Made by a program: the position numbers and the translations under genes. From contig OZ242010.1 of assembly GCA_965204745.1 (NCBI GenBank), positions 704,001-768,000 on the forward strand: 64,000 nucleotides of DNA, read 5' to 3'. Within the stretch, counting starts at the first letter, position 1. Each line of letters opens with the position of its first letter. Origin of the DNA: Candidatus Latescibacterota bacterium (lineage in GTDB: Bacteria > Latescibacterota > UBA2968). Below the pieces are notes generated by a model. It saw nothing but the letters and a program-made list of their open reading frames with translations. It searched no databases and was not told the DNA's origin. This document shows, one piece after another, positions 48,335-63,659 of the stretch.

Positions 48335-50683
48335 ATGGCAGATCGAAAATCCGTGATGATACAGTTGTTGCGCGGGGAGGTGACGGTCGAGCAGGCGGCC
48401 GGTGAATTGGGGGTTTCGCGCCGAGGGGTTCGGGATATGCAGCGGCGGTTTTTGCAACAGCGATTGCCCAAAGCGCGGGAGGTGGTGCGCGCGCCGGTGG
48501 ATCAACCGGTGACGGTGTTGCGCGACAAGTGGGGCGTGGCGCACATCGAGGCCGCGTCTGTGGGCGATTGTTTTACCGCGCTGGGCTATGCGATGGCGCA
48601 GGATCGGCTGTGGCAGATGGATTATATGCGGCGGTTGGCGCACGGGCAGTTGGCGGAAATTTTGGGTGCGGAGTATGTGGCGCGAGATCGGTTGCATCGC
48701 ACGATTGGCCTGACGCGCGCAGCACGGGATGCGGCTTCGGCGATGTCGAGCGAGGTGGCGATGGTGTTGCGGTCTCTGTGCAATGGGATCAATGCGTGGA
48801 TGGCTGCGATGGGCGAGCGGCGGTGCGTGGAGTTCGACATTTTGGCGTACGACCCGACGCCGTGGACTGCGGTGGATTCGATAGCGATATGGAAATGGCG
48901 ATGGTGGATGCTGACCGGGCGATTGGACATGATCGCGATCAACGAGGCGGCAAAACGGCATTTGCCCGCGGAGTTGTTCGATTTGTTTTTGATGACCGAG
49001 GCCGCAGAGGAGACCATTGTGCCATCTGACGAACCCGCGGGCATCGGGGGATACGACGCGGGCATTGGCAGCAACAACTGGGTGGTCGGGGGACGGAGTA
49101 CCGCGAGTGGCAAGCCGGTGTTGGCGACAGATCCGCACAACGACGTGAGTTTGTGCAGGCAGTGGTATCAGGCGCAGGTGTGCGCGCCGGGCATGGATGC
49201 GGTGGGCGCGTTTTTCCTGGGCACGCCGGGGATTTATTTGGGGCATACGCGCGATACGGCGTGGGGCGTGACGAATCACACGGCTTCGGCGCGCGATTTG
49301 TACGTGGAAGAGCTGTCCGCAGGAGATGGGGATTTGTACCGCGATGGCGATGCGTGGCGGGTGGTCGAGGTGGAGCGGCAGGAGATTCCGGTGCGCGGTG
49401 CCGATGCGGAGGAGTTGGTGATTCGCCGAACCCGGCGCGGGCCGATTGTCGATGCGTTTGTGCCTGCGGTAGATGATGGGGAACGACCCGTGCTGTCGTT
49501 GCGCTGGGTGGGGGCCGAGGCGACCACCGGGTTTGAAGCGATGCTCGCGTTGATGAAGTCGCAAAATGTCGCGCGGGTTTTAGACGCGCTGGCACAGTGG
49601 CCCATGCCCATTTTGAATTTTGTGTTTGCCGATTCAGAGGGGCGCATCGGGTACCACGCGGTCGGGCATGTGCCTAAGCGCAAGGCGGTGCATTTTGGGT
49701 TTCGCCCGGCCAATGACCCCGCGCACGAGTGGGGCGCGCCGCATGCGTTTGACGAATTGCCGCAGTTGATCGATCCCGACTGCAACTGGGTGGCAACCGC
49801 GAACAATCCCCCGTGGGGTGGCAAGGGTGCGTACATGAGCTTGGGCGGCTGGTCAGAGGGGTATCGGTTTCGCAGAATCAAGGCGCGCATCGAGGCATTG
49901 GAGACGCATACGCAGGAAAGCGTGGGGGCGATCCAAGCGGATGTGGTTCACGGTCGCGGGCAAGCCTTCGCGCCCATTGTGGCAGCGATGGCGCTGAAAG
50001 CGCGGGACGAGGGCTTGCGCGAGTGGGGCGCGTTGTTGCGCGACTGGGATGGCGCGTATTCGGTCGATTCCGTAGCGGCGACCTTGTTCACGGCATTTTG
50101 GGAGCACTGGGTGCGGCGGGTGATGCGCGTGCGGTTTCCGGACGGGGTGGTGCGATTGGTGGCCGGGCGCGGGGGCAGTGTGGCGCGGCGCGTGTTGGCG
50201 GGCGATGCGCGAGAATGGACGCCCGAGGGGTGGGATGTCGAGGAGGAGGTGTGCGCCGCATTGCTCGACGCACGCGATTGGTTGCACCGGCATGTGGGCA
50301 CGCGCGAGGCGCAGTGGCGTTGGGGGCGGTTGCACACGGTTACATTTCGGCATCCCTTGAGCGATGGCGGGGCCTTGTCGCAGGTGTTTGACGTGGGGCC
50401 GTTTGAGTCGTCTGGCAGCGCGGGCACGGTGCGCGCAACCGGGTACAATTTTGGCGAGCCGTTTGAGGTGACCGGGCTTTCGACCTATCGCATGGTGGTG
50501 GATCTGGACGATCCCGCCCACGGCGTAGCAACCGCGGCCGGTGGACAATCCGGGCATCCGGGCAGCGCGAATTACCGCACGCAATCCGAACTGTGGGCCG
50601 TTGACGCATATCACCCCCTGCTGATGGACAGGGCAGATGTCGAAGCAAATTTGCAGAGCAGGTTGGAGATGTCGTGTAGTTGA
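48335..50683 (+). CDS. Penicillin acylase family (Ntn-hydrolase, S45) protein with an N-terminal HTH-like segment
   Basis: RDKWGVAHIEA..LGYAMAQDRLWQMD, G|SNNWVV autocleavage site, LATDPH, WGRLH, GQSGHPGS; GGGAGA RBS before ATG 48335. Confidence 0.92.
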   Translation: MADRKSVMIQLLRGEVTVEQAAGELGVSRRGVRDMQRRFLQQRLPKAREVVRAPVDQPVTVLRDKWGVAHIEAASVGDCFTALGYAMAQDRLWQMDYMRRLAHGQLAEILGAEYVARDRLHRTIGLTRAARDAASAMSSEVAMVLRSLCNGINAWMAAMGERRCVEFDILAYDPTPWTAVDSIAIWKWRWWMLTGRLDMIAINEAAKRHLPAELFDLFLMTEAAEETIVPSDEPAGIGGYDAGIGSNNWVVGGRSTASGKPVLATDPHNDVSLCRQWYQAQVCAPGMDAVGAFFLGTPGIYLGHTRDTAWGVTNHTASARDLYVEELSAGDGDLYRDGDAWRVVEVERQEIPVRGADAEELVIRRTRRGPIVDAFVPAVDDGERPVLSLRWVGAEATTGFEAMLALMKSQNVARVLDALAQWPMPILNFVFADSEGRIGYHAVGHVPKRKAVHFGFRPANDPAHEWGAPHAFDELPQLIDPDCNWVATANNPPWGGKGAYMSLGGWSEGYRFRRIKARIEALETHTQESVGAIQADVVHGRGQAFAPIVAAMALKARDEGLREWGALLRDWDGAYSVDSVAATLFTAFWEHWVRRVMRVRFPDGVVRLVAGRGGSVARRVLAGDAREWTPEGWDVEEEVCAALLDARDWLHRHVGTREAQWRWGRLHTVTFRHPLSDGGALSQVFDVGPFESSGSAGTVRATGYNFGEPFEVTGLSTYRMVVDLDDPAHGVATAAGGQSGHPGSANYRTQSELWAVDAYHPLLMDRADVEANLQSRLEMSCS

Positions 50684-50707
50684 TATTTCGTTGACTACTG
50701 TTAAACA

Positions 50708-50960
50708 TTGTTGGCTATGTTTGATTGGAAGGAGGTGGGCTTTGTTGCCCTATTGGAGCAGTTACGTAGCCGGGAAGAGTCGTGCGTTGTGGTTGCCTGG
50801 CGATTCGTCGTTGGCGGTGTTAGAGGGCTGGCAGAGCAAGACGGGTGCGGCGTCGTGGTTTTCTGTGGCGCAGAGCATGGTGCGGAAGCACCGTGCGAAA
50901 AGGCTGTTCTGTCCTTTTGCCATCGGTTCTCTCGTTAGCACGGCGAGCAACAAAGCCCTT
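50708..50960 (+). pseudogene. tnpA: Decayed IS607 serine-recombinase tnpA remnant
   Basis: FDWKEVGFVALLEQL...VVVAWR...LAEQDGCGVVVF...VLSFCHRFSR*HG resembles the C-terminal half of IS607 TnpA; the HTH and catalytic YxRVSS are missing. Confidence 0.6.
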
Positions 50961-52070
50961 GTGACGAAGGCGCGGAAGGTGCGTATCTCTCTGTCGGCTG
51001 ATCAGCGTGCGCTGGTGAAGCATTGGATGGCTGGCAGTCGGTGGTGGTATAACAAGGCCGTCGAGCTGTACCGGGCAGGCTTCAAAGTGTCGGAGTATGA
51101 CCTGCGTCGTATTGTCCGTGCGGTCAGTCCCAAGTGGTTTGCGGATGTTCCGAGCAAGATTCTGTGCGGTGCGATAGCCGATGCTCACCGGGCCAATCAA
51201 GCCGTATGGCGTAAGCGAAAGACAGGAGAAAAAGCAGCGTTGCATTATCGTAGCCGGAAGAATCCTATTCAATCCTTGTCGTTGTGCAATGTGGCGTGGA
51301 ACAAGGATCGGTCAACGATCTATCCACTCAGTCTGGGACAAATCCGCTTATCCCGCCCGGTTCCGGAAGCTCCGAAGGATGGGCGGCTTGTTGTTCATCA
51401 GGGCCGGTACTATGTGACCGTGCCCTATTCGAGTCCACGGCGCGTAGCCGAGAGCCAAGGGCGCGTCGTGGCACTCGATCCGGGTATTCGTCGTTTCTTG
51501 ACGTTCTATTCTGAAACGGATTGTGGTAAAATTGGCGAAGGTGATTTTGGTCGCATCCAGCGGTTGTGTGCTCACCTGGATAGTTTGATTGGTCGCATGG
51601 TGAAAGCGTGCGGCTTTCTCAAGGTGCGCCTAAAGCGTGCCATCGAGCGCATGCGCTGGCGCATCCGCGACCTCATCGATGAACTCCACAAGCAGGCAGC
51701 ACGATGGCTTGTGGACAACTACGATGTCATCCTGTTGCCAACGTTTGAGACGAGCGAGATGGTTGTGCGCGGTAAGCGGTGCCTTCGCCGCAAGTCTGTC
51801 CGCAACCTGCTCACCTTCGCCCATTATCGCTTCAAGCAATTCCTCAAGCACAAGGCTTTCGAGACCGGCAAGTTGGTCTTAGATGTGAATGAGGCATACA
51901 CGTCCAAAACAGTCAGTTGGACAGGCGAGATTGTGAAGAACTTGGGCGGAGCGAAAGTCATCCGTAGCAGAATGGATGGCCATACCATGGATCGAGATAT
52001 CAATGGCGCACGGGGTATTTTTCTCCGTGCTTTGGGCGATACACCCAAGTTGCGTGATTGCCTGGCGTAA
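50877..52070 (+). CDS. tnpB: RNA-guided endonuclease TnpB (IS607 type); start uncertain
   Basis: SRWWYNKAV, RuvC-I VVALDPGIRRF, DELHKQAA, ILLPTFE, NEAYTSKT, RuvC-III DRDINGARGI. Confidence 0.92.
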   Translation: MVRKHRAKRLFCPFAIGSLVSTASNKALVTKARKVRISLSADQRALVKHWMAGSRWWYNKAVELYRAGFKVSEYDLRRIVRAVSPKWFADVPSKILCGAIADAHRANQAVWRKRKTGEKAALHYRSRKNPIQSLSLCNVAWNKDRSTIYPLSLGQIRLSRPVPEAPKDGRLVVHQGRYYVTVPYSSPRRVAESQGRVVALDPGIRRFLTFYSETDCGKIGEGDFGRIQRLCAHLDSLIGRMVKACGFLKVRLKRAIERMRWRIRDLIDELHKQAARWLVDNYDVILLPTFETSEMVVRGKRCLRRKSVRNLLTFAHYRFKQFLKHKAFETGKLVLDVNEAYTSKTVSWTGEIVKNLGGAKVIRSRMDGHTMDRDINGARGIFLRALGDTPKLRDCLA

Positions 52071-56563: not shown

Positions 56564-58339
56564 TTACCTCGGGGTTTCATCGTCGTTGGTGACGTAGAGA
56601 AAGGCCGTACACATTTCGTCGGTCGCGTTTTCGCCCCAGCGCACCAAGCGGGGCGGATCGTTGGGGTTTCGGGGGTTGTCGGCGGAGTTGTCGTAATGGG
56701 CTTCAAGGGCGATGCGAGTGCCGCGTGGGAGCGGGACCGGAGTTTTGTACACGTAGGTTTCCTGCCAGTTGAAGTCCCAGGGTTTGACCCAGATCAAGGG
56801 GTGTTGCGTGCCATCGGGATAGGTGGCGGTGAGTTTCATCTCCGTGCCGAGCAAGTGCATGTGGGGCAAGATGCCGAGCAGGTGCTGGTCTTGGGCTATG
56901 GTGATCGACCCCGCGACCCGGTGGCGTTTGACATTGGGCGGGATGAACAGCAGGCGGCTGTTGATGACGACCTCGCGGAGGCGTTTTTCGACGGGTTTTT
57001 TGGCAAAGTAAATGCCCAACCGAGAGTGGTCGGTTGCGGCGCGTCCAATTTTGTGGTAGTGGATTTGGAGAATGATGTCGCTGTTGGGCGGCAGATGTCG
57101 CCCGATGCCATCGGGGAGGATGAACGGCGTATTGCCGGGTGCCCATCCCCCCAGGGATTCGTAGAGGGGCACGCCAATGCCGCCGAAACACGGATAGCCC
57201 GGCCCCGGCGCGTTGTTCTGTTGCAGGCGCGCTTTGCCCGAGACGTCGATGTACGCGCTGACGTGGTGGACGACTTCGCGGTCCCCGGGCAGGACTTCGA
57301 TAGCCGAGACATAGTTGGCGGCGGCCCGTTCGGTGGGCAAGACAAAACAGCGGTATTCGTCGCGGCCCGCGGCTTCGAGGGGATACGGGGCTTCGGGCGT
57401 GAGGATCAAGTCGGGCGTGCCCAAGGTCCAGCCGGTTGGAAAGGCGCGGGGTTCGGGGCGATGCGCGGGATCGCCTTCGGGCATGCCGCCATCCACCCAT
57501 TGCGCGAAGGTGTGGATTTCCGCGTCCGTGAGCCTGCGGGAATTTTTGAAGTCGCCGTATTCCGGGCGGGCTTTCCACGGGGGCATGATGCGGGCTTGGA
57601 TGGAGTCGCGCATCTGATAGGCCCAGGCGAGTACTTCCGCGTAGTCGAAAAAGGGCACGCGGCCCATGCCGCCCGGGCGGTGGCAGGTTTGGCAGCGGTT
57701 TTGAAGCACGGGCAAGATGTCGCGGTAAAATGTCGGGGCGGATGCTTGCGCGGCAGGGGTTACGCGGGGCAGGCGTCTGATTTCACAGCCAAAGCTGGGC
57801 AGGATGGGATCGGCGATTTCCCGGTCGGCGAGCAGGGCGTCGAGGGCGTCCCACAGACCGCGCGAGGTCGCGTTTTCGGCTATGCCCCAACCGTTGTCGA
57901 GTTCGCCTTTGTAGCGCAGGCGGCGTTGCGCGTCAAAGAGGAAGGCTTGAGGGGTGTGCGTCGCGCCCAAGTGGTCCGCGAGTTCGGCGTGCGGGTCGCG
58001 CAGGACGATGAAGGGCACGGGATTTTGGGCGTAGTGGGCGCGGATGTCTCGGTCGGTTTCGTTGAAGTTGGCATTCACGGCGATCAGGCGAATGCCTTTG
58101 GGCGCGTACTGCTCGTGAAGTTGCGTGCGGACGAGGTCGTATTTGACCGAGGCCGGGCAGACGATGGAACCGAAGACGATGACGAGGGCGCGATTGATGG
58201 GCAAATCCGCGAGGGAGACGGGCGCGCCATCGAGGTCCGCGAGGGCAAAATTGCCGAGGGGGGCGCCGATGCCGAGGGGTTCGGCGCATGCGTGGCGCGG
58301 CAAGGCGAGGAAGAGGGCGATGGCGAGGAGGCGTTTCAT
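56564..58339 (-). CDS. Secreted redoxin + c-type cytochrome + copper type II ascorbate-dependent monooxygenase-like fusion
   Basis: Signal peptide; redoxin (VCPAS..ATHTPQAF..YKGELDN..GCEI); CQTCH heme motif; Cu ligands VVHHV, QIHYH, PHMH, DEMC. Confidence 0.85.
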   Translation of the reverse strand: MKRLLAIALFLALPRHACAEPLGIGAPLGNFALADLDGAPVSLADLPINRALVIVFGSIVCPASVKYDLVRTQLHEQYAPKGIRLIAVNANFNETDRDIRAHYAQNPVPFIVLRDPHAELADHLGATHTPQAFLFDAQRRLRYKGELDNGWGIAENATSRGLWDALDALLADREIADPILPSFGCEIRRLPRVTPAAQASAPTFYRDILPVLQNRCQTCHRPGGMGRVPFFDYAEVLAWAYQMRDSIQARIMPPWKARPEYGDFKNSRRLTDAEIHTFAQWVDGGMPEGDPAHRPEPRAFPTGWTLGTPDLILTPEAPYPLEAAGRDEYRCFVLPTERAAANYVSAIEVLPGDREVVHHVSAYIDVSGKARLQQNNAPGPGYPCFGGIGVPLYESLGGWAPGNTPFILPDGIGRHLPPNSDIILQIHYHKIGRAATDHSRLGIYFAKKPVEKRLREVVINSRLLFIPPNVKRHRVAGSITIAQDQHLLGILPHMHLLGTEMKLTATYPDGTQHPLIWVKPWDFNWQETYVYKTPVPLPRGTRIALEAHYDNSADNPRNPNDPPRLVRWGENATDEMCTAFLYVTNDDETPR

Positions 58340-58356: not shown

Positions 58357-59070
58357 TCAGCGGTCGCGCTGCCGCAGATGGTCGATGAGGAAAACGAGCG
58401 CGAGGATGCCGAAGAATGCGGCGACAGCGAGGGCGATAAAGTGGCTTTCATCCGGCAGGCGCCAGTATTGTACCCCGACAAATATCAGGGCGGGAACGAA
58501 GAAGATGAGCGCGCCCAACAAGGCATAGATGGATCGCGCGCCCGGTTCGGGTTGGGGATTTTGGTCGCGCTGTGGTCGTGTCGGCCGGATCGTGGGAGGG
58601 GCTGTCTTGGGCTTGACCGGTTCGGGTGGTTTGACTTGGGCGAGCATGGCGATGACGCTTTTGCGATAGGCGTTGTCCGCCGCCGCATAGACGGTCCAAA
58701 ATGCCGCGATTTCCTCCGCGCCTGTGCGGGTGAATTGCTTTTCGAGTGCGCGTTTGCGGTCGAGGGGCAGTTCGGCCGGGGCCTGTTTTTGGTGCTTTTT
58801 GAGGTCGTGGAGGATGTGCGTGAGGCTGGCGTCGTACCCGTGAATCCAGGGATAGGTGGCGTGCTGGAGCAGTTTTTCGTCGGGGTTGGTGGTGGCAAAT
58901 TCGCGGGTGTACGCGGCGATGAGTTTTTCGCGGCCGATTTTAGACCCCGCGCCGGGAAAGTGTTTTGCCCGCAACGCACTGTCGCGCTGAAAGGGCTGCG
59001 AGAGATGGGCGTGATCCGCGATTTCGAGGATGCGGTTGAATGCAGCGATGAGGGGTTGGCGACAGGACAT
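58357..59070 (-). CDS. Hypothetical membrane protein
   Basis: 237-aa ORF with a Pro-rich linker and two C-terminal TM helices, 17 bp upstream of the next gene. Confidence 0.6.
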   Translation of the reverse strand: MSCRQPLIAAFNRILEIADHAHLSQPFQRDSALRAKHFPGAGSKIGREKLIAAYTREFATTNPDEKLLQHATYPWIHGYDASLTHILHDLKKHQKQAPAELPLDRKRALEKQFTRTGAEEIAAFWTVYAAADNAYRKSVIAMLAQVKPPEPVKPKTAPPTIRPTRPQRDQNPQPEPGARSIYALLGALIFFVPALIFVGVQYWRLPDESHFIALAVAAFFGILALVFLIDHLRQRDR

Positions 59071-59163
59071 ACGAAAGGCGTGAGAGGGGAGAGGCGAGAG
59101 GCAAGAGGGGAGAGGCAAGAGAGACAGCGCGGCGGTGCTGAACGCCGATAGCCAGTTTTCAAA

Positions 59164-59511
59164 TTATGCAGGAACACCAGAATAACTTTCCCGCTTTGAA
59201 ACCGCGCTTGACGACAATGGTTGGGAAACGCTTTGATCTCTTTCACGAGACGCCTTCCAGCATACAGCGAGAATATGACCAACATGTTCGCGGATATAAT
59301 CGCGCTGACTTGCAACGTGTTCAAGAATATGCTCGACCTCATTCATATCAATATCATACTTTTTAAGTGCAGGTACAATCTCTTTCGTCAAAGCGGCCTT
59401 AAACAAAGGCACATCTCCATCTTCCAACAACACATCGATGTATTCGACAATATCCTCCGGCGTATCCAAACCAAACAACGGATCATAAGGCTCAGGTTGC
59501 GTTTTTCCCAT
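59164..59511 (-). CDS. Addiction-module antidote-like (HI1420-type N-terminus) hypothetical protein
   Basis: PYDPL..LDTPEDIVEYIDVLLEDGDVPLFKAAL; GGGAG RBS; no clear Cro-HTH follows. Confidence 0.55.
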   Translation of the reverse strand: MGKTQPEPYDPLFGLDTPEDIVEYIDVLLEDGDVPLFKAALTKEIVPALKKYDIDMNEVEHILEHVASQRDYIREHVGHILAVCWKASRERDQSVSQPLSSSAVSKRESYSGVPA

Positions 59512-59669
59512 GACAACACTCCCTAAAATCTAAGTAACCAGACAAATTCTAAGAAGCGATCTAAAAACAGGCCCCCTCCCCGAAACAGGGAGGGGGAGAT
59601 GTTCTCTGGTAGGGAGTGGCTCAATTCCCCCATTTCTTCAATGAGCGGAGCGAAGGGGGTAGATCACAT

Positions 59670-61286
59670 TCAGTTGACTGACTTTCCAAAATTTGCGACA
59701 AAGATGAGAAAATCGGGAAAATCCACGCTACCCGAGTTGTCGAGATCGAATTTTTCATTGGCTGTGCCAAAAGCTTGGGCAAACAAGAGGAAGTCTGAAA
59801 AGTCAATCTTGCCCGACTCATCAAAGTCGGAGCGTTTGAGTGGCCCGGTGACCGATCCGGTGAGGGTCAGGCTGATCGTGGCGTTTTCCGGATCGTCCGA
59901 TTGAATGTCAATGGTGCCTGTGATTGCCCCTTCGGATTGCGGGTCAAACGTCACGGTGATGTCGTGAGATTGACCGGCGGGCACGGTGAATTGGGTTTCC
60001 GAAAATGTGATGCCCGCAATGTCGGATCGGATGTCCGTAACGGTGAGCGGGCCTGTGCCGCTGTTGTCGATAGTGATCGTTTCCGTGATGCGGTTGCCCA
60101 CCTCAATTTCGCCCAAACTCACACTTTCTCGAATGAGTGCAATGCTCGGGACGGGGATAGCAGTGACCGATCCGGTGAGGGTCAGGCTGATCGTGGCGTT
60201 TTCCGGATCGTCTGAAAGGATGTCAATGGTGCCTGTGATTGCCCCTTCGGCTTGCGGATTGAACGTCACGGTGATGACGCGAGATTGACCGGCGGGCACG
60301 GTGAATTGGGTTTCCGAAAATGTGATGCCCGCGATGTCAGATCGAATGTCCGTAACGGTGAGCGGGCCTGTGCCGCTGTTGTCGATAGTGAATGTTTTTG
60401 TGATGCGGTTGCCCACCTCAATTTCACCCAAACTCAAACTTTCTTGAATGAGTGCAATGCTCGGCAATGGAGCCATTTCAATGGTGAGATTCAACACAGG
60501 TACTCGCAAGGTGCCGACGCTTTGGTCCCTGTGTTGCAAGGTGAGGCTGCCCGAAAAAGTGCCGGGTTGCGTTGGCGTGAGGGTGATTTGAACGGTTGCA
60601 GTTTCGCCGGGGCCGATAGTCAGGGTCTCTGGCGTCATGGTGATGCCGTCGGGTGCTCTGTATCCGGTGATTTCGAGCGGCCCCGTGCCCGTGTTGCGGA
60701 TTTCGAGTTCAACGGTTTTGGACTGCCCCACTTCAAGCGTTCTGCCAAAGTAAAGCCCTTGAGTGGGATCAGGAAATAGGGAAATCACCGGCCGGCGATT
60801 GATGAGGGCGTCGACTTCTCTGTTGACTGCGGCATAATTGCCAGTGCCGAGTGCATTGGTCCTCAGGCGCAAGATGCCTTCTTGGTCAATGACGAGGATA
60901 GCTTCGTTGCGGGTGCCATACTCTCTGGATATGTCGTGCGCCTGCATGATCATAGGCGTCGTTACCCTGGCTCGTCTCCGATAGGACTCTGCCTGCTGAC
61001 GATTGCCTCTGTATCTGTCGAGCGTGAGGACTTGGACGCCGGGTTTGTTGCGGTTGGGTTGATGAACCTGGGATTCAAAGGCGGGACCCGCCCCTATACA
61101 GGTATCTCAGTTCCATCCGACAAAAAAGAGGACGGAGATCGTGTTGCTCGAATGGCTGACGCCATACGACCGACCATCGGTGGCCCCAAGTTGAAATTCG
61201 CTCATTTTGTCACCCACCCGTGGTTGGGCGAAAGCGGTCGTACACAGACCAAGCGACAAAAGAAAAAAGAAAATACGGTGTTTCAT
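59670..61286 (-). CDS. Secreted selenoprotein: UxxC redoxin domain + 3 ASH/choice-of-anchor-D-like Ig domains + C-terminal EF-hand/dockerin-like tag (538 aa, Sec60)
   Basis: ATG 61286 with GGAGG RBS and signal peptide; in-frame TGA 61107-61109 in LFFVGWN-U-DTC; the frame stays open into ORF 59670..60953; SECIS-like hairpin follows. Confidence 0.88.
61077..61095 (-). promoter_or_regulatory. Putative bacterial SECIS element
   Basis: AGGGGCGG-GUC-CCGCCUUU stem-loop; the G-initiated apical loop begins 19 nt 3' of the UGA. Confidence 0.75.
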
Positions 61287-61521
61287 GGTGTTCCTCCATA
61301 AAAGGTGTGAGACGGGACGTTGGCTACGCTTGCGCGTGCGCCAGAGTGACGATATGGTTGGGCGGGGTGGACTGACCACTGACTACTGACCACTGACCAC
61401 TGAATATAGCAAATCTCTTTCGTTCGCGCCAAGAAAATGTATCGGGGTTTGCGCTTGATTTTGGGGGGTGGCTTTTCTACATTGTGTTCACGTTTTGGCG
61501 TTTTTGGAGTTCCCATTTTTT

Positions 61522-62655
61522 ATGTCTCTATCTTCAAATGACTTTGACGCCGCGATTCAGCAGGCGATAGCGCGCCGCGATAGTGGCGATTTGGACGCGG
61601 CGATAGCGGGGTTTGATGCGGCTATCGCGATCTGCGATAGCGACCCGGCGGCGTATGTGCATCGCGGGATCGCAAATGGGCAACTGGAGCGATTCGACGC
61701 GGCAATAGCGGATTTTGACCGCGCCATCGCGCTCGCGCCCGGCGATCCATGGGTGTGGACGAATCGGGCGATAGCATGCGGGTTGATGGGGCAATTCGAC
61801 GCGGCGATAGAGAGCTTCGACCGGGCTATCGCGCTCGATCCAAGGGATACGCAGGCCCTCGCCAGCCGCGGGGAAACCCTGCGCGAGATGGGGCGGCTTG
61901 ACGAGGCGTTGGCGGATCTCAACCGGGTTTTGGAATTGGATGCGGATTATTTTGGCGCGTTGATCAGCCGAGGGCATGCGTGCCTGGCGATGGGACAATG
62001 CGATGCGGCAGCGGGTGATTTTGATCGGGCCATCGCCGTGGGCAATGGGCATCCGGATGCGTTTGCCGGGCGGGCCGAGGTCTATCGCCGGGTGGGGGCG
62101 AGCGAGGCCGCGATTGCGATGTACGGGCAGGCCCTCGGCGCGATGCCCGATCACTTGGGCGCGTTGATCGGCCGGGCCGAGGTGTTGCGGGCGAATGGGC
62201 AATGGGCAGACGCGCTCGCGGATTTTGACCGCGCGCTCGGTCTCGCGCCGGATGATCCCGATTTGTTGGCCGGACGAGGGGATGTCGCGTTGCAACTGGG
62301 GCAAAGTGCCGAGGCGATCCGCGATTTTACCGCGGCATTGAATCGGGCGCCGGATCATCTGTGGGCGTTGATGGGGCGTGGGGTCGCGCTGCGAATGGCG
62401 AATGATCTGGAGGCGTCGCTCGCGGATTTTGACCGGGCCGTGCAAATCGAGACCGGGGATACGTGGGTTTGGGCACAGCGCGGGGAGACGCGGCGGATGC
62501 TCGGGGAATACGAAGAAGCGGTTGCAGATTTTACGCACGCGCTGGATCTCGATCCGGAAAACAGCTACGCACGGGAATGCCGGGCAGAGGCGTTTCGGCA
62601 ACTGGGCCGCTTTGTGGAAGCGGTTGAAGATCTGAACAGAGCAAGGGCGGAATGA
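61522..62655 (+). CDS. All-TPR protein (about 11 repeats), cytoplasmic
   Basis: 34-aa repeats A...RG......G....A.ADFDRA..L.P; no signal peptide. Confidence 0.9.
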   Translation: MSLSSNDFDAAIQQAIARRDSGDLDAAIAGFDAAIAICDSDPAAYVHRGIANGQLERFDAAIADFDRAIALAPGDPWVWTNRAIACGLMGQFDAAIESFDRAIALDPRDTQALASRGETLREMGRLDEALADLNRVLELDADYFGALISRGHACLAMGQCDAAAGDFDRAIAVGNGHPDAFAGRAEVYRRVGASEAAIAMYGQALGAMPDHLGALIGRAEVLRANGQWADALADFDRALGLAPDDPDLLAGRGDVALQLGQSAEAIRDFTAALNRAPDHLWALMGRGVALRMANDLEASLADFDRAVQIETGDTWVWAQRGETRRMLGEYEEAVADFTHALDLDPENSYARECRAEAFRQLGRFVEAVEDLNRARAE

Positions 62656-63659
62656 GCGAATCGCATCACATTGTCATTGCGGACCGCACGGTTGCGTTTG
62701 AAGAGACGATAGCCCGGTTTGGCGCGGCATTGTCCAAGATGTGTCGGTTTCAAACGCGGGCGCGGCGGTTTTACAAGACCGTGTGGATCGCGGATTGTTA
62801 TACGGATTACGTGCAATCCGCGCTGTTTCGCAAGTACGAAGGGCCGCTGATGGAGGGCATTGCCCTGCGGACCATGGGCAAGGGGTTGTCCAAAGCGCAA
62901 GTGTTGGCAGGGGCCCTGGCCGAGGCCGTGGAGCGCGTGTCGTTTTTTGACGCGCTAGCCCATGGGCGCGAGACCCCGATTTACGAGTTGACGCCGGATG
63001 TCGCGCTTGTGCAGACTGACATGAAAGCGGCGGATGTGCCGCATTTGAACGATTCGGCCAATGGAGTCTCGGCGGGCAATACCGTGCTGGAGTGCGTGTT
63101 TCACGGCTTGTTGGAGATGCACGAGCACCTGGATGTGGGGATGCACTTTTACTGGCCGGGGTTGAAACACCGGCAATTTGTCGATCCCATGCTGACGGGA
63201 TTTCCCGCACACATTGCCGAGAAGATGCTGGCCGTGGCCGCGCCGGGGGAAAACGAAAAGGTGACGACGGTTCACGCGGTTGTGTGTCCCAAAGACCTGG
63301 GGCCGCTGGTTCGCACATGCACGCATTTGGACGGGCGAATGGCGTTGCAACGGGCGTTTAATGAAACGGTGCAGAGTCACAAGACCCGGTTTGTGTCCGA
63401 TTTGCAGACGTTTGCTCCGGAGATCGACGTGTGGGATTTGCCCAATCATTTTACGGATGATTTGGTTGCGGATATTCAGGTGGTGATGAGCGGCATGAAG
63501 CATCCGGTTTACGTGCAAGATTGGACGCATCCCGAGATGCAGATTCCGGTGTTGCGCCCCTTTAGCTTGCAGACACCAGCACGCGATCACGCGATGGTCG
63601 AGACGTATGTCCATCGCATTATGGTGGATTCGGGGGATTATATGGTGTGGGGATTTTAG
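62652..63659 (+). CDS. YcaO-like family protein (compact, 335 aa)
   Basis: GKGLSKAQVLAGALAEAVER, SANGVSAGNT..ECVFHGLLEMHE, ALQRAFNETVQ motifs; ATGA overlap with the TPR gene. Confidence 0.82.
   Translation: MSESHHIVIADRTVAFEETIARFGAALSKMCRFQTRARRFYKTVWIADCYTDYVQSALFRKYEGPLMEGIALRTMGKGLSKAQVLAGALAEAVERVSFFDALAHGRETPIYELTPDVALVQTDMKAADVPHLNDSANGVSAGNTVLECVFHGLLEMHEHLDVGMHFYWPGLKHRQFVDPMLTGFPAHIAEKMLAVAAPGENEKVTTVHAVVCPKDLGPLVRTCTHLDGRMALQRAFNETVQSHKTRFVSDLQTFAPEIDVWDLPNHFTDDLVADIQVVMSGMKHPVYVQDWTHPEMQIPVLRPFSLQTPARDHAMVETYVHRIMVDSGDYMVWGF

Follow-up and report, generated by a model that had tools for sequence, protein, structure and literature searches.

To our knowledge, nearly all described bacterial selenoproteins are single-domain redox proteins of the cytoplasm or the periplasm. 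One listed class, the 'Prx-like thiol:disulfide oxidoreductases' (PF00578 with a UxxC or UxxU motif), is predicted with high confidence in the consulted parts of two surveys (PMC9312934, PMC13188914), the first of which names a class by its domain plus its motif. Here, we describe a gene that would add an exported, multidomain member to this repertoire. It lies in a window of 64,000 nucleotides from Candidatus Latescibacterota bacterium (positions 704,001 to 768,000 of the forward strand of contig OZ242010.1), in which a first-pass annotation, made from the letters alone, had pointed to a hidden selenoprotein at 59670..61286 on the minus strand. We conclude that this region is almost certainly a true selenoprotein gene, read as one unit. 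Taken jointly, a recoded UGA, a TlpA/ResA-like domain, an immunoglobulin (Ig)-like spacer and a calcium-loop tail very probably make up an exported selenoprotein. The call that it is a selenoprotein rests mainly on the selenocysteine (Sec, U) machinery of the genome, the conservation of the TGA and the existence of Cys homologues, and less on the selenocysteine insertion sequence (SECIS). The first-pass annotation did not know the architecture as described, and this stands for the secreted multidomain architecture and for the lineage, both of which are new; it does not extend to the catalytic class, since UxxC redoxins of AhpC/TSA type are already known as a predicted class in the consulted parts of the surveys.

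The open reading frame (ORF) list of the window holds two minus-strand ORFs, 61107..61379 and 59670..60953. When TGA is translated as U, 59670..61379 is open throughout, with one TGA inside the frame and another at its end, which agrees with the earlier remark that the two ORFs share a frame with no other stop. From the ATG at 61286, the gene consists of 538 codons plus the terminal TGA at 59670-59672, and a Shine-Dalgarno-like GGAGGA, read from the sequence, is found 5 nt ahead of this start (61292..61297). Like every part of the gene, the Sec codon is on the minus strand; it is codon 60 of the 538-aa product (61107..61109), occupies the first position of U-x-x-C in the context W-N-U-D-T-C, and is followed by Cys63 (61098..61100), the putative resolving residue, which is invariant in the family alignment. 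A putative signal peptide covers residues 1-20 (61227..61286), with A-F-A followed by Q (A-x-A/Q type, by eye), and the thioredoxin-fold (AhpC/TSA) domain, which we read as TlpA/ResA-like, covers residues ~22-165 (60792..61223).

The host genome, a single contig of 5.48 Mb, is equipped to decode UGA as Sec. A tRNA-Sec scores 70.1 bits, where the gathering score is 47, and ARAGORN reads its anticodon as TCA; the tRNA gene is adjoined by selD (372.8 bits), which itself holds one in-frame TGA, and selA (489.4 bits) is the neighbour of selB (SelB-wing_3, 72.6 bits). The search for selA, selB, selC and selD that the first-pass annotation had proposed thus found all of them. Two more AhpC/TSA-type genes with one in-frame TGA are located elsewhere in the genome. 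The three further one-TGA genes noted on the contig (G000 C1; 5439109-5439480, minus strand; 2439543-2440034, plus strand; 2158845-2159765, minus strand) are these two, with the contexts G-G-U-T and T-W-U-R, and selD, with G-G-U-A. The full machinery, together with these additional in-frame TGAs, indicates that Sec decoding is in active use in this organism.

Homologues with Cys at the Sec position, another check proposed at first pass, do exist. A profile search of 1.84 billion representative proteins gave 18,011 at E ≤ 0.001 and 73 at E ≤ 1e-30, and the 12 representatives examined, drawn from the best 150, all have C-x-x-C in the aligned motif; a paralogue adjoining the Sec copy in one related locus (L031) has C-x-x-C as well. 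Two of the metagenomic homologues, P0015 (435 aa) and P0019 (440 aa), match the window protein at 37-40% identity and share with it a signal peptide, a redoxin, choice-of-anchor D domains and an EF-hand/dockerin-like tail in the same order, differing in the C-x-x-C and in having two Ig-like domains rather than three. P0020 and P0012 show the motif of the redoxin subfamily, G-x-x-C-x-x-C-x-x-x-G/A-P, also with Cys, but in these proteins a C-terminal Por_Secre_tail, the type A sorting domain of the type IX secretion system (T9SS), replaces the Ig stalk and the calcium-loop tail. From these four architectures, the redoxin subfamily appears to be typically joined to extracytoplasmic sorting or anchoring modules.

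A hydrophobic N-terminus with A-x-A-Q is kept, by eye, in all rows of the protein alignment (A3) that reach this end. Anchoring as a lipoprotein through Cys15 was considered and rejected: by eye, the genus has Leu at residue -1, and distant relatives lack the Cys. After the redoxin come three Ig-like domains of the choice-of-anchor D/ASH/DUF1573 type (60471..60773, 60163..60462 and 59848..60147). The Pfam ASH, DUF1573 and HYDIN-type models match three stretches each, and choice-of-anchor D (NF012200) also matches three, with 176 bits against a cut-off of 45. The second and third domains are tandem duplicates of 300 nt with 93% DNA identity and a spacing of 315 nt; the earlier description of three domains of ~100 aa, two of them near-identical, was therefore accurate. 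Public truncated relatives carry differing numbers of Ig-like repeats, which suggests that the length of the stalk varies between strains.

The last 56 residues (59673..59840) form a tail with two EF-hand-like calcium-binding loops, each followed by a helix in a dockerin-like manner, and EF-hand_1 passes its cut-off of 25.4 with 31.6 bits. This tail is present at 80 loci in the genome, and at 56 of them it lies at most 70 residues from the end of the ORF. Since a search for other UGA-split proteins with the same tag had been proposed, the 80 loci were scanned at the first upstream in-frame stop; it is a TGA, then at least 40 open codons, at 28 loci, and among these 28 a redox-type context was seen only at the target, the scan being limited to that first stop. 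Twenty of the other loci with such a TGA belong to a repeated family of near-identical small ORFs. Its members, about 20 in number and 75-122 aa long (mostly 75-81), among them those at 235356-235535, 416090-416269 and 1066445-1066618 of the genome contig (G000 C1), consist of little more than an N-terminal leader and a dockerin-like tail and share the same conserved upstream sequence; this family could be a repeated mobile unit or a set of free 'dockerin-only' proteins.

Cohesin-like domains were found at four loci of the genome, three by Pfam match and one as a paralogue (G000 C1: 1966845-1967519, 5247028-5247663, 3220522-3221153 and 3719649-3720206), and three of these loci have a T9SS sorting-tail match no farther than ~320 nt from the cohesin. 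The cohesins at 1966845 and 5247028 are each directly followed by a T9SS type A sorting tail; the cohesin at 3220839 has one T9SS tail match just upstream and another ending the 2048-aa frame; and the protein at 3719649 ends in a dockerin-like tail (at 3720042). The protein of 1966845 additionally bears a dockerin-like module ahead of the cohesin (at 1966623), and its cohesin is kept in 21 of 21 genomes of the genus. Together with a SprA homologue encoded in the genome, this arrangement suggests a T9SS-anchored cohesin-dockerin display system, and the tail of the selenoprotein may be anchored in this way, possibly on the T9SS-tailed cohesin proteins. A complex prediction for the cohesin domain (L066/L069 protein, A5) and the tail (A6) scored 0.06, with the mark at 0.32, and bears neither way. 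The docking claimed at first pass is kept as a proposal, and the selenoprotein signature and the architecture are as it had described them.

The alternative that survives best is that the protein stays periplasmic and that its tail is an EF-hand pair serving folding, stability or a secretion step, with no docking; we consider this a substantial possibility, somewhat short of even. On the tail, EF-hand models are the only ones to exceed their cut-off, ~80 tail loci face four cohesin-like loci, and TlpA-like reductases normally depend for their recycling in the periplasm on DsbD/CcdA, of which one DsbD_TM protein is encoded here. However, T9SS type A sorting tails, which direct proteins to the surface, are found on relatives of this redoxin domain, and choice-of-anchor D domains, named for the alternative surface anchors that they precede, point in the same direction, as do the T9SS tails near three of the four cohesin-like domains and the SprA homologue.

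Regarding the catalytic domain, Pfam AhpC-TSA spans the TGA; it scores 29.4 bits when the whole protein is searched and 32.7 bits for the domain by itself, both above the gathering cut-off of 26. With Sec in U-x-x-C, the domain falls in the listed Prx-like class, because the naming rule, in the consulted part of its source, is domain plus motif (PMC9312934). In an AlphaFold2 (AF2) model built from a 23-row alignment (predicted local distance difference test, pLDDT, 87.5; predicted template modelling score, pTM, 0.80), U60 is located after strand 50-56 and just before helix 61-78 (DSSP), which makes it the active-site position of a thioredoxin fold. A profile search of the PDB returned 40 distinct sequences at E ≤ 0.01, of which the best was 2ls5 (7.6e-17); thioredoxin-family proteins of Geobacter and ResA (~1e-9) came next, and in the profile alignment U coincides with the first Cys of C-x-x-C in 2ls5 and 3kcm. 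The top Foldseek matches were 2ls5, DsbE, ResA and Bcp-type chains. The complete thioredoxin/AhpC-TSA-like fold with UGA at the first Cys of CxxC, as proposed from the read-through translation, was thus recovered by Pfam, by the AF2 model and by the profile alignment. The active-site pair stands at the N-terminus of helix 1, and the invariant P111 stands in a predicted cis-Pro loop, as in TlpA/ResA-like proteins; we read the domain as a TlpA/ResA-like thiol:disulfide oxidoreductase in which Sec would be the nucleophile and Cys63 the resolving residue. The specific ResA model (NCBIfam NF002854) gave 13.2 bits against a cut-off of 170, and the OS_HP2 (seleno)protein model (NF041425) gave 93.2 against 100, its match being on the Ig-like domains and not on the Sec site. 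A deiodinase-like identity was rejected: NCBIfam deiodinase_rel weakly matches some of the Cys relatives, and it gave no match on the window domain at E ≤ 1.

The main functional rival is that the selenoprotein acts as a peroxidase of Prx or GPx type rather than as a thiol:disulfide reductase, which we judge rather unlikely. AhpC/TSA is the best-matching Pfam family, the leading Foldseek matches include Bcp/PrxQ and AhpE structures, and the genome has two other AhpC/TSA genes with an in-frame TGA; moreover, Sec resists irreversible over-oxidation, a property that would suit an oxidising exterior. Peroxiredoxins, however, are marked by the signature P-x-x-x-T/S-x-x-C and a conserved Arg, and this signature is absent here: inspection of alignment A3 shows that position -3 is always Gly and that Pro does not stand at -7. 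The best profile matches, in addition, are proteins of TlpA/ResA/DsbE type with C-x-x-C, and this favours a thiol:disulfide oxidoreductase.

The TGA is deeply conserved. In a six-frame search of 41 related genomes, one-TGA matches to the N-terminal domain were among the matches listed for 38, and none was among those listed for the other three (G021, G024, G026); 1297 further matches fell outside the listed ones. For comparison, we assembled 34 gene copies from 32 loci in 30 genomes, one of them (L032) located by motif search. In all 34 the TGA occupies the same alignment column, within the motif G-x-x-U-x-x-C-x-x-x-G-P, at identities to the window protein that range from 25 to 84% upstream of the TGA. 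Mean identity over 32 copies is 55% upstream and 51% downstream, and such similar values indicate that both flanks are constrained; the invariant residues are G57, U60, C63, G67, E71, L87, G94, P111 and V132. Seventeen related loci come from Candidatus Latescibacterota or uncultured Latescibacteria metagenome-assembled genomes, and the predicted selenoprotein is conserved across a whole order of Latescibacterota. A pattern search using the N-terminal domain of the window alone produced 52 pattern matches and no relative.

That the TGA is a real stop, leaving either a pseudogene or a 59-residue secreted peptide plus a 427-aa Ig-domain protein started at an internal Met, is very improbable. Table-11 ORF calling does give this split, the terminator of the gene is also TGA, and public databases hold the downstream form at 419-529 aa. 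These public entries can be read differently: a word-index search of 5.8 billion proteins returned seven relatives, each covering 39% of the queried N-terminal domain, and the five inspected of the seven all start at an internal Met past the active site. A stop at codon 60 would also cut in half a thioredoxin fold that Pfam and the AF2 model carry across the TGA; the stretch from the TGA to the internal Met is as conserved as the rest; a column kept in 34 of 34 copies down to 25% identity is not what a nonsense mutation leaves; and full-length Cys forms exist. An assembly or sequencing error, for which we found no support, is refuted by the presence of the same codon in 34 copies from 30 genomes and in contigs from four of four public runs. 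Those contigs cover 61107-61109 with no listed difference, although positions 61104, 61105, 61111, 61113 and 61114 vary among them and the variants around the TGA encode residues found in orthologues; the first-pass annotation had named reads with TGC, TGT or TGG at this codon as a refutation, and these independent assemblies keep TGA. The conservation in homologues and in all four runs excludes both a sequencing error and a recent nonsense mutation.

With regard to the signal that would direct recoding, the bacterial SECIS (bSECIS) consensus, in the consulted part of its source, places a G in one of the first two loop positions at 16-37 nt from the UGA (PMC13188914). The GC-rich hairpin with a G-initiated loop noticed at first pass was recovered at 61076..61096 on the minus strand: it has nine uninterrupted pairs and a G-U-C loop that starts 19 nt after the UGA, it obeys this rule of loop and distance, and its outer helix may extend to 61066-61103. 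Hairpins of at least nine pairs that obey the rule accompany 1.2% of 5000 random genomic TGAs. In the alignment of 33 downstream segments, every sequence has G22 and G23 (numbered from the U of UGA), the best rule-conforming stems have 4-9 bp, and stem sequences differ by lineage, with different complementary arms in, for example, L034 and L046. In 13 distant homologues, the helix 17-21/26-30 is 87.7% paired, compared with 29-46% when it is slid; two of its five pairs change on both sides, and its covariation score was reached by none of 500 shuffles. This helix was derived from the same 13 sequences on which it was scored, and the restriction to these sequences favours the proposed structure; the covariation support is modest. 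The selD gene of this genome can form, by eye, a 6-bp hairpin with a G-G-U loop from 20 nt after its UGA (positions 24-26 counted from U). We consider it plausible that the window hairpin is a SECIS that fits the rule.

Several observations weigh against the reading of an exported, recoded and docked selenoprotein. Rule-conforming hairpins of at least five pairs are found at 29.5% of the 5000 random TGAs; the stability of the hairpin is unremarkable (z = -1.30, with 25 of 200 shuffles folding as well); its helix is just 4-6 bp in distant homologues; and the bases of the loop region also encode the conserved A-G-P, so that their invariance may equally reflect the protein. RNAalifold, applied to all 33 segments, proposed another helix, which is weak (-4.21 kcal/mol) and lacks compensatory pairs, a disagreement that we attributed to a one-base register shift between genus-level and order-level groups. 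On the protein side, no NCBIfam redoxin or selenoprotein model exceeds its cut-off on the catalytic domain, the putative signal peptide was judged by eye, and the tail is under both dockerin cut-offs (Dockerin_1, PF00404, 19.8 against 22.9 bits; dockerin_GC, NF041540, 24.8 against 29); of the 'dockerin-like tag' of the first-pass annotation, the EF-hand pair holds and the dockerin assignment does not reach its threshold. No electron donor gene adjoins the selenoprotein gene in the annotation of its neighbours, and the sole DsbD_TM match of the genome lies elsewhere. Finally, selenium incorporation and expression are both predictions.

From these results, we propose the following mechanism. The ribosome would read the UGA at codon 60 as Sec by means of SelB and tRNA-Sec, guided by the G-loop hairpin inside the coding sequence 19 nt downstream, and removal of the A-x-A/Q signal peptide, the presumed export route, would yield the mature protein. 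In this protein, helix 1 would begin with U-x-x-C and P111 would mark the cis-Pro loop, Sec60 acting as the attacking nucleophile and Cys63 as the resolving residue. The three choice-of-anchor-D Ig-like domains would serve as a spacer whose number varies by tandem duplication, and the protein would end in the dockerin-like pair of EF-hand-like calcium loops common to ~80 loci. Outside the cytoplasm, the selenolate may attack a disulfide, another oxidised sulfur or a peroxide substrate; Cys63 would then resolve the selenenylsulfide, and the Se-S bond would be reduced again by a donor.

The surroundings of the gene were compared in flanks of 3 kb at 17 related loci. Upstream, on the opposite strand, a YcaO gene and a TPR gene are found in 17 of 17; in the window, the YcaO-domain protein (62652-63659, plus strand, 52.4 bits) has a start that overlaps the stop of the TPR gene (61468-62655). 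Downstream on the minus strand, a 253-aa protein with a hydrophobic C-terminus and no family match (58357..59118) is conserved at 16 of 17 loci, and a 591-aa protein that joins an N-terminal Redoxin/AhpC-TSA domain to copper type II ascorbate-dependent monooxygenase-like domains (56564..58339), two genes downstream of the selenoprotein gene and conserved in the genus, is present at 15 of 17. A 115-aa ORF at 59164-59511 (minus strand) matches no family and lacks a counterpart at the 17 loci; it may be a lineage-specific insertion, or not a gene. Farther away, a TnpB/Cas12f1-like ORF (50637-52070, plus strand) shows a TNB domain (53 bits) and HTH_OrfB_IS605.

On the same strand as the gene, a terminator-like hairpin of 11 bp followed by a T run (59572..59596) lies ~75 nt past the stop, as a consensus match only, and a TG-extended promoter-like site with 9 of 12 matches (61403..61432) is likewise a consensus match only, not above shuffles. 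The interval from the promoter-like site to the gene contains tandem heptamers, GGTCAGT/AGTCAGT (61371-61401). The 13-mer composed of two of these units occurs 200 and 183 times on the two strands of the genome, in 249 non-overlapping sites; by eye, most of the 40 sites inspected seem to be intergenic, and there are arrays longer than 150 nt. In four of four runs, contig depth over 61372-61400 was ~100- to 1000-fold above that of the neighbouring bins. Seventeen listed runs contain the stretch or part of it, none of them recorded as RNA, five labelled as sponge metagenome and three as marine metagenome, and contigs of two sponge-labelled runs (X2, X5) and one marine run (X9) match at 90-99%.

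The gene also illustrates a failure of annotation: the inspected public ORFs lack the signal peptide and the active site, and, with no NCBIfam model above its cut-off on the catalytic domain, the prediction that pipelines would miss this protein proved right. Because public ORF calls are truncated, surveys of the selenoproteome and of secreted redox proteins in these bacteria will undercount. Titles and abstracts, with supplements left unopened, yielded nothing about this protein, about selenoproteins with a dockerin tail or about the use of selenium by Latescibacterota, and a paper on sponge Latescibacterota contains no occurrence of dockerin, cohesin, selen* or thioredoxin (PMC12993501). What the locus adds is U-x-x-C chemistry built into a secreted, modular and probably anchored protein of an uncultured phylum, and matched Cys and Sec forms of the same architecture offer a natural pair for asking why Sec was chosen. 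The questions that it raises concern the extracytoplasmic reductant of the selenenylsulfide and the substrate of the enzyme.

More speculatively, and at what we take to be a low probability, outer-membrane cohesins with T9SS tails could hold the ~80 tailed proteins as a surface enzyme set in which the selenoenzyme is cargo on an adjustable Ig stalk, carrying out thiol or peroxide chemistry without a periplasmic reductant. If so, the setting would be sponge- or marine-associated Latescibacterota in oxygenated host tissue or seawater, the resistance of the selenol to over-oxidation would be exploited outside the cell, and this would be the first Sec enzyme known as cargo of a cohesin-dockerin-type scaffold.

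Compared with known systems, the window protein shares with the Prx-like thiol:disulfide oxidoreductase class the PF00578 match, Sec as the first residue of U-x-x-C and the thioredoxin fold. In the consulted parts of its sources, that class is described by domain and motif, with no mention of a signal peptide, an Ig-like stalk or an anchor tail, and PMC13188914 nowhere uses the terms 'signal peptide', 'secreted', 'dockerin' or 'periplasm'. With TlpA, ResA and DsbE (PDB 1st9, ResA; 2ls5, from Bacteroides thetaiotaomicron), it has in common the fold (Foldseek probability 1.00, template modelling score ~0.65-0.8 on the target), the location of the active site, a Pro five residues past the second Cys, the cis-Pro loop and export. 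It departs from these proteins in having Sec for the first Cys and a Trp at -2 rather than at -1, in having no acidic residue before the conserved Pro, and in its fusion to Ig-like domains and a tail. With the type I dockerins and cohesins of cellulosomes, it shares two duplicated segments of calcium loop plus helix at the extreme C-terminus of many secreted proteins, and the presence of cohesin-domain proteins in the same genome. In contrast to cellulosomes, its tail is below the Dockerin_1 cut-off, its cargo is a redox enzyme instead of a glycoside hydrolase, and the cohesins are borne by T9SS-tailed proteins.

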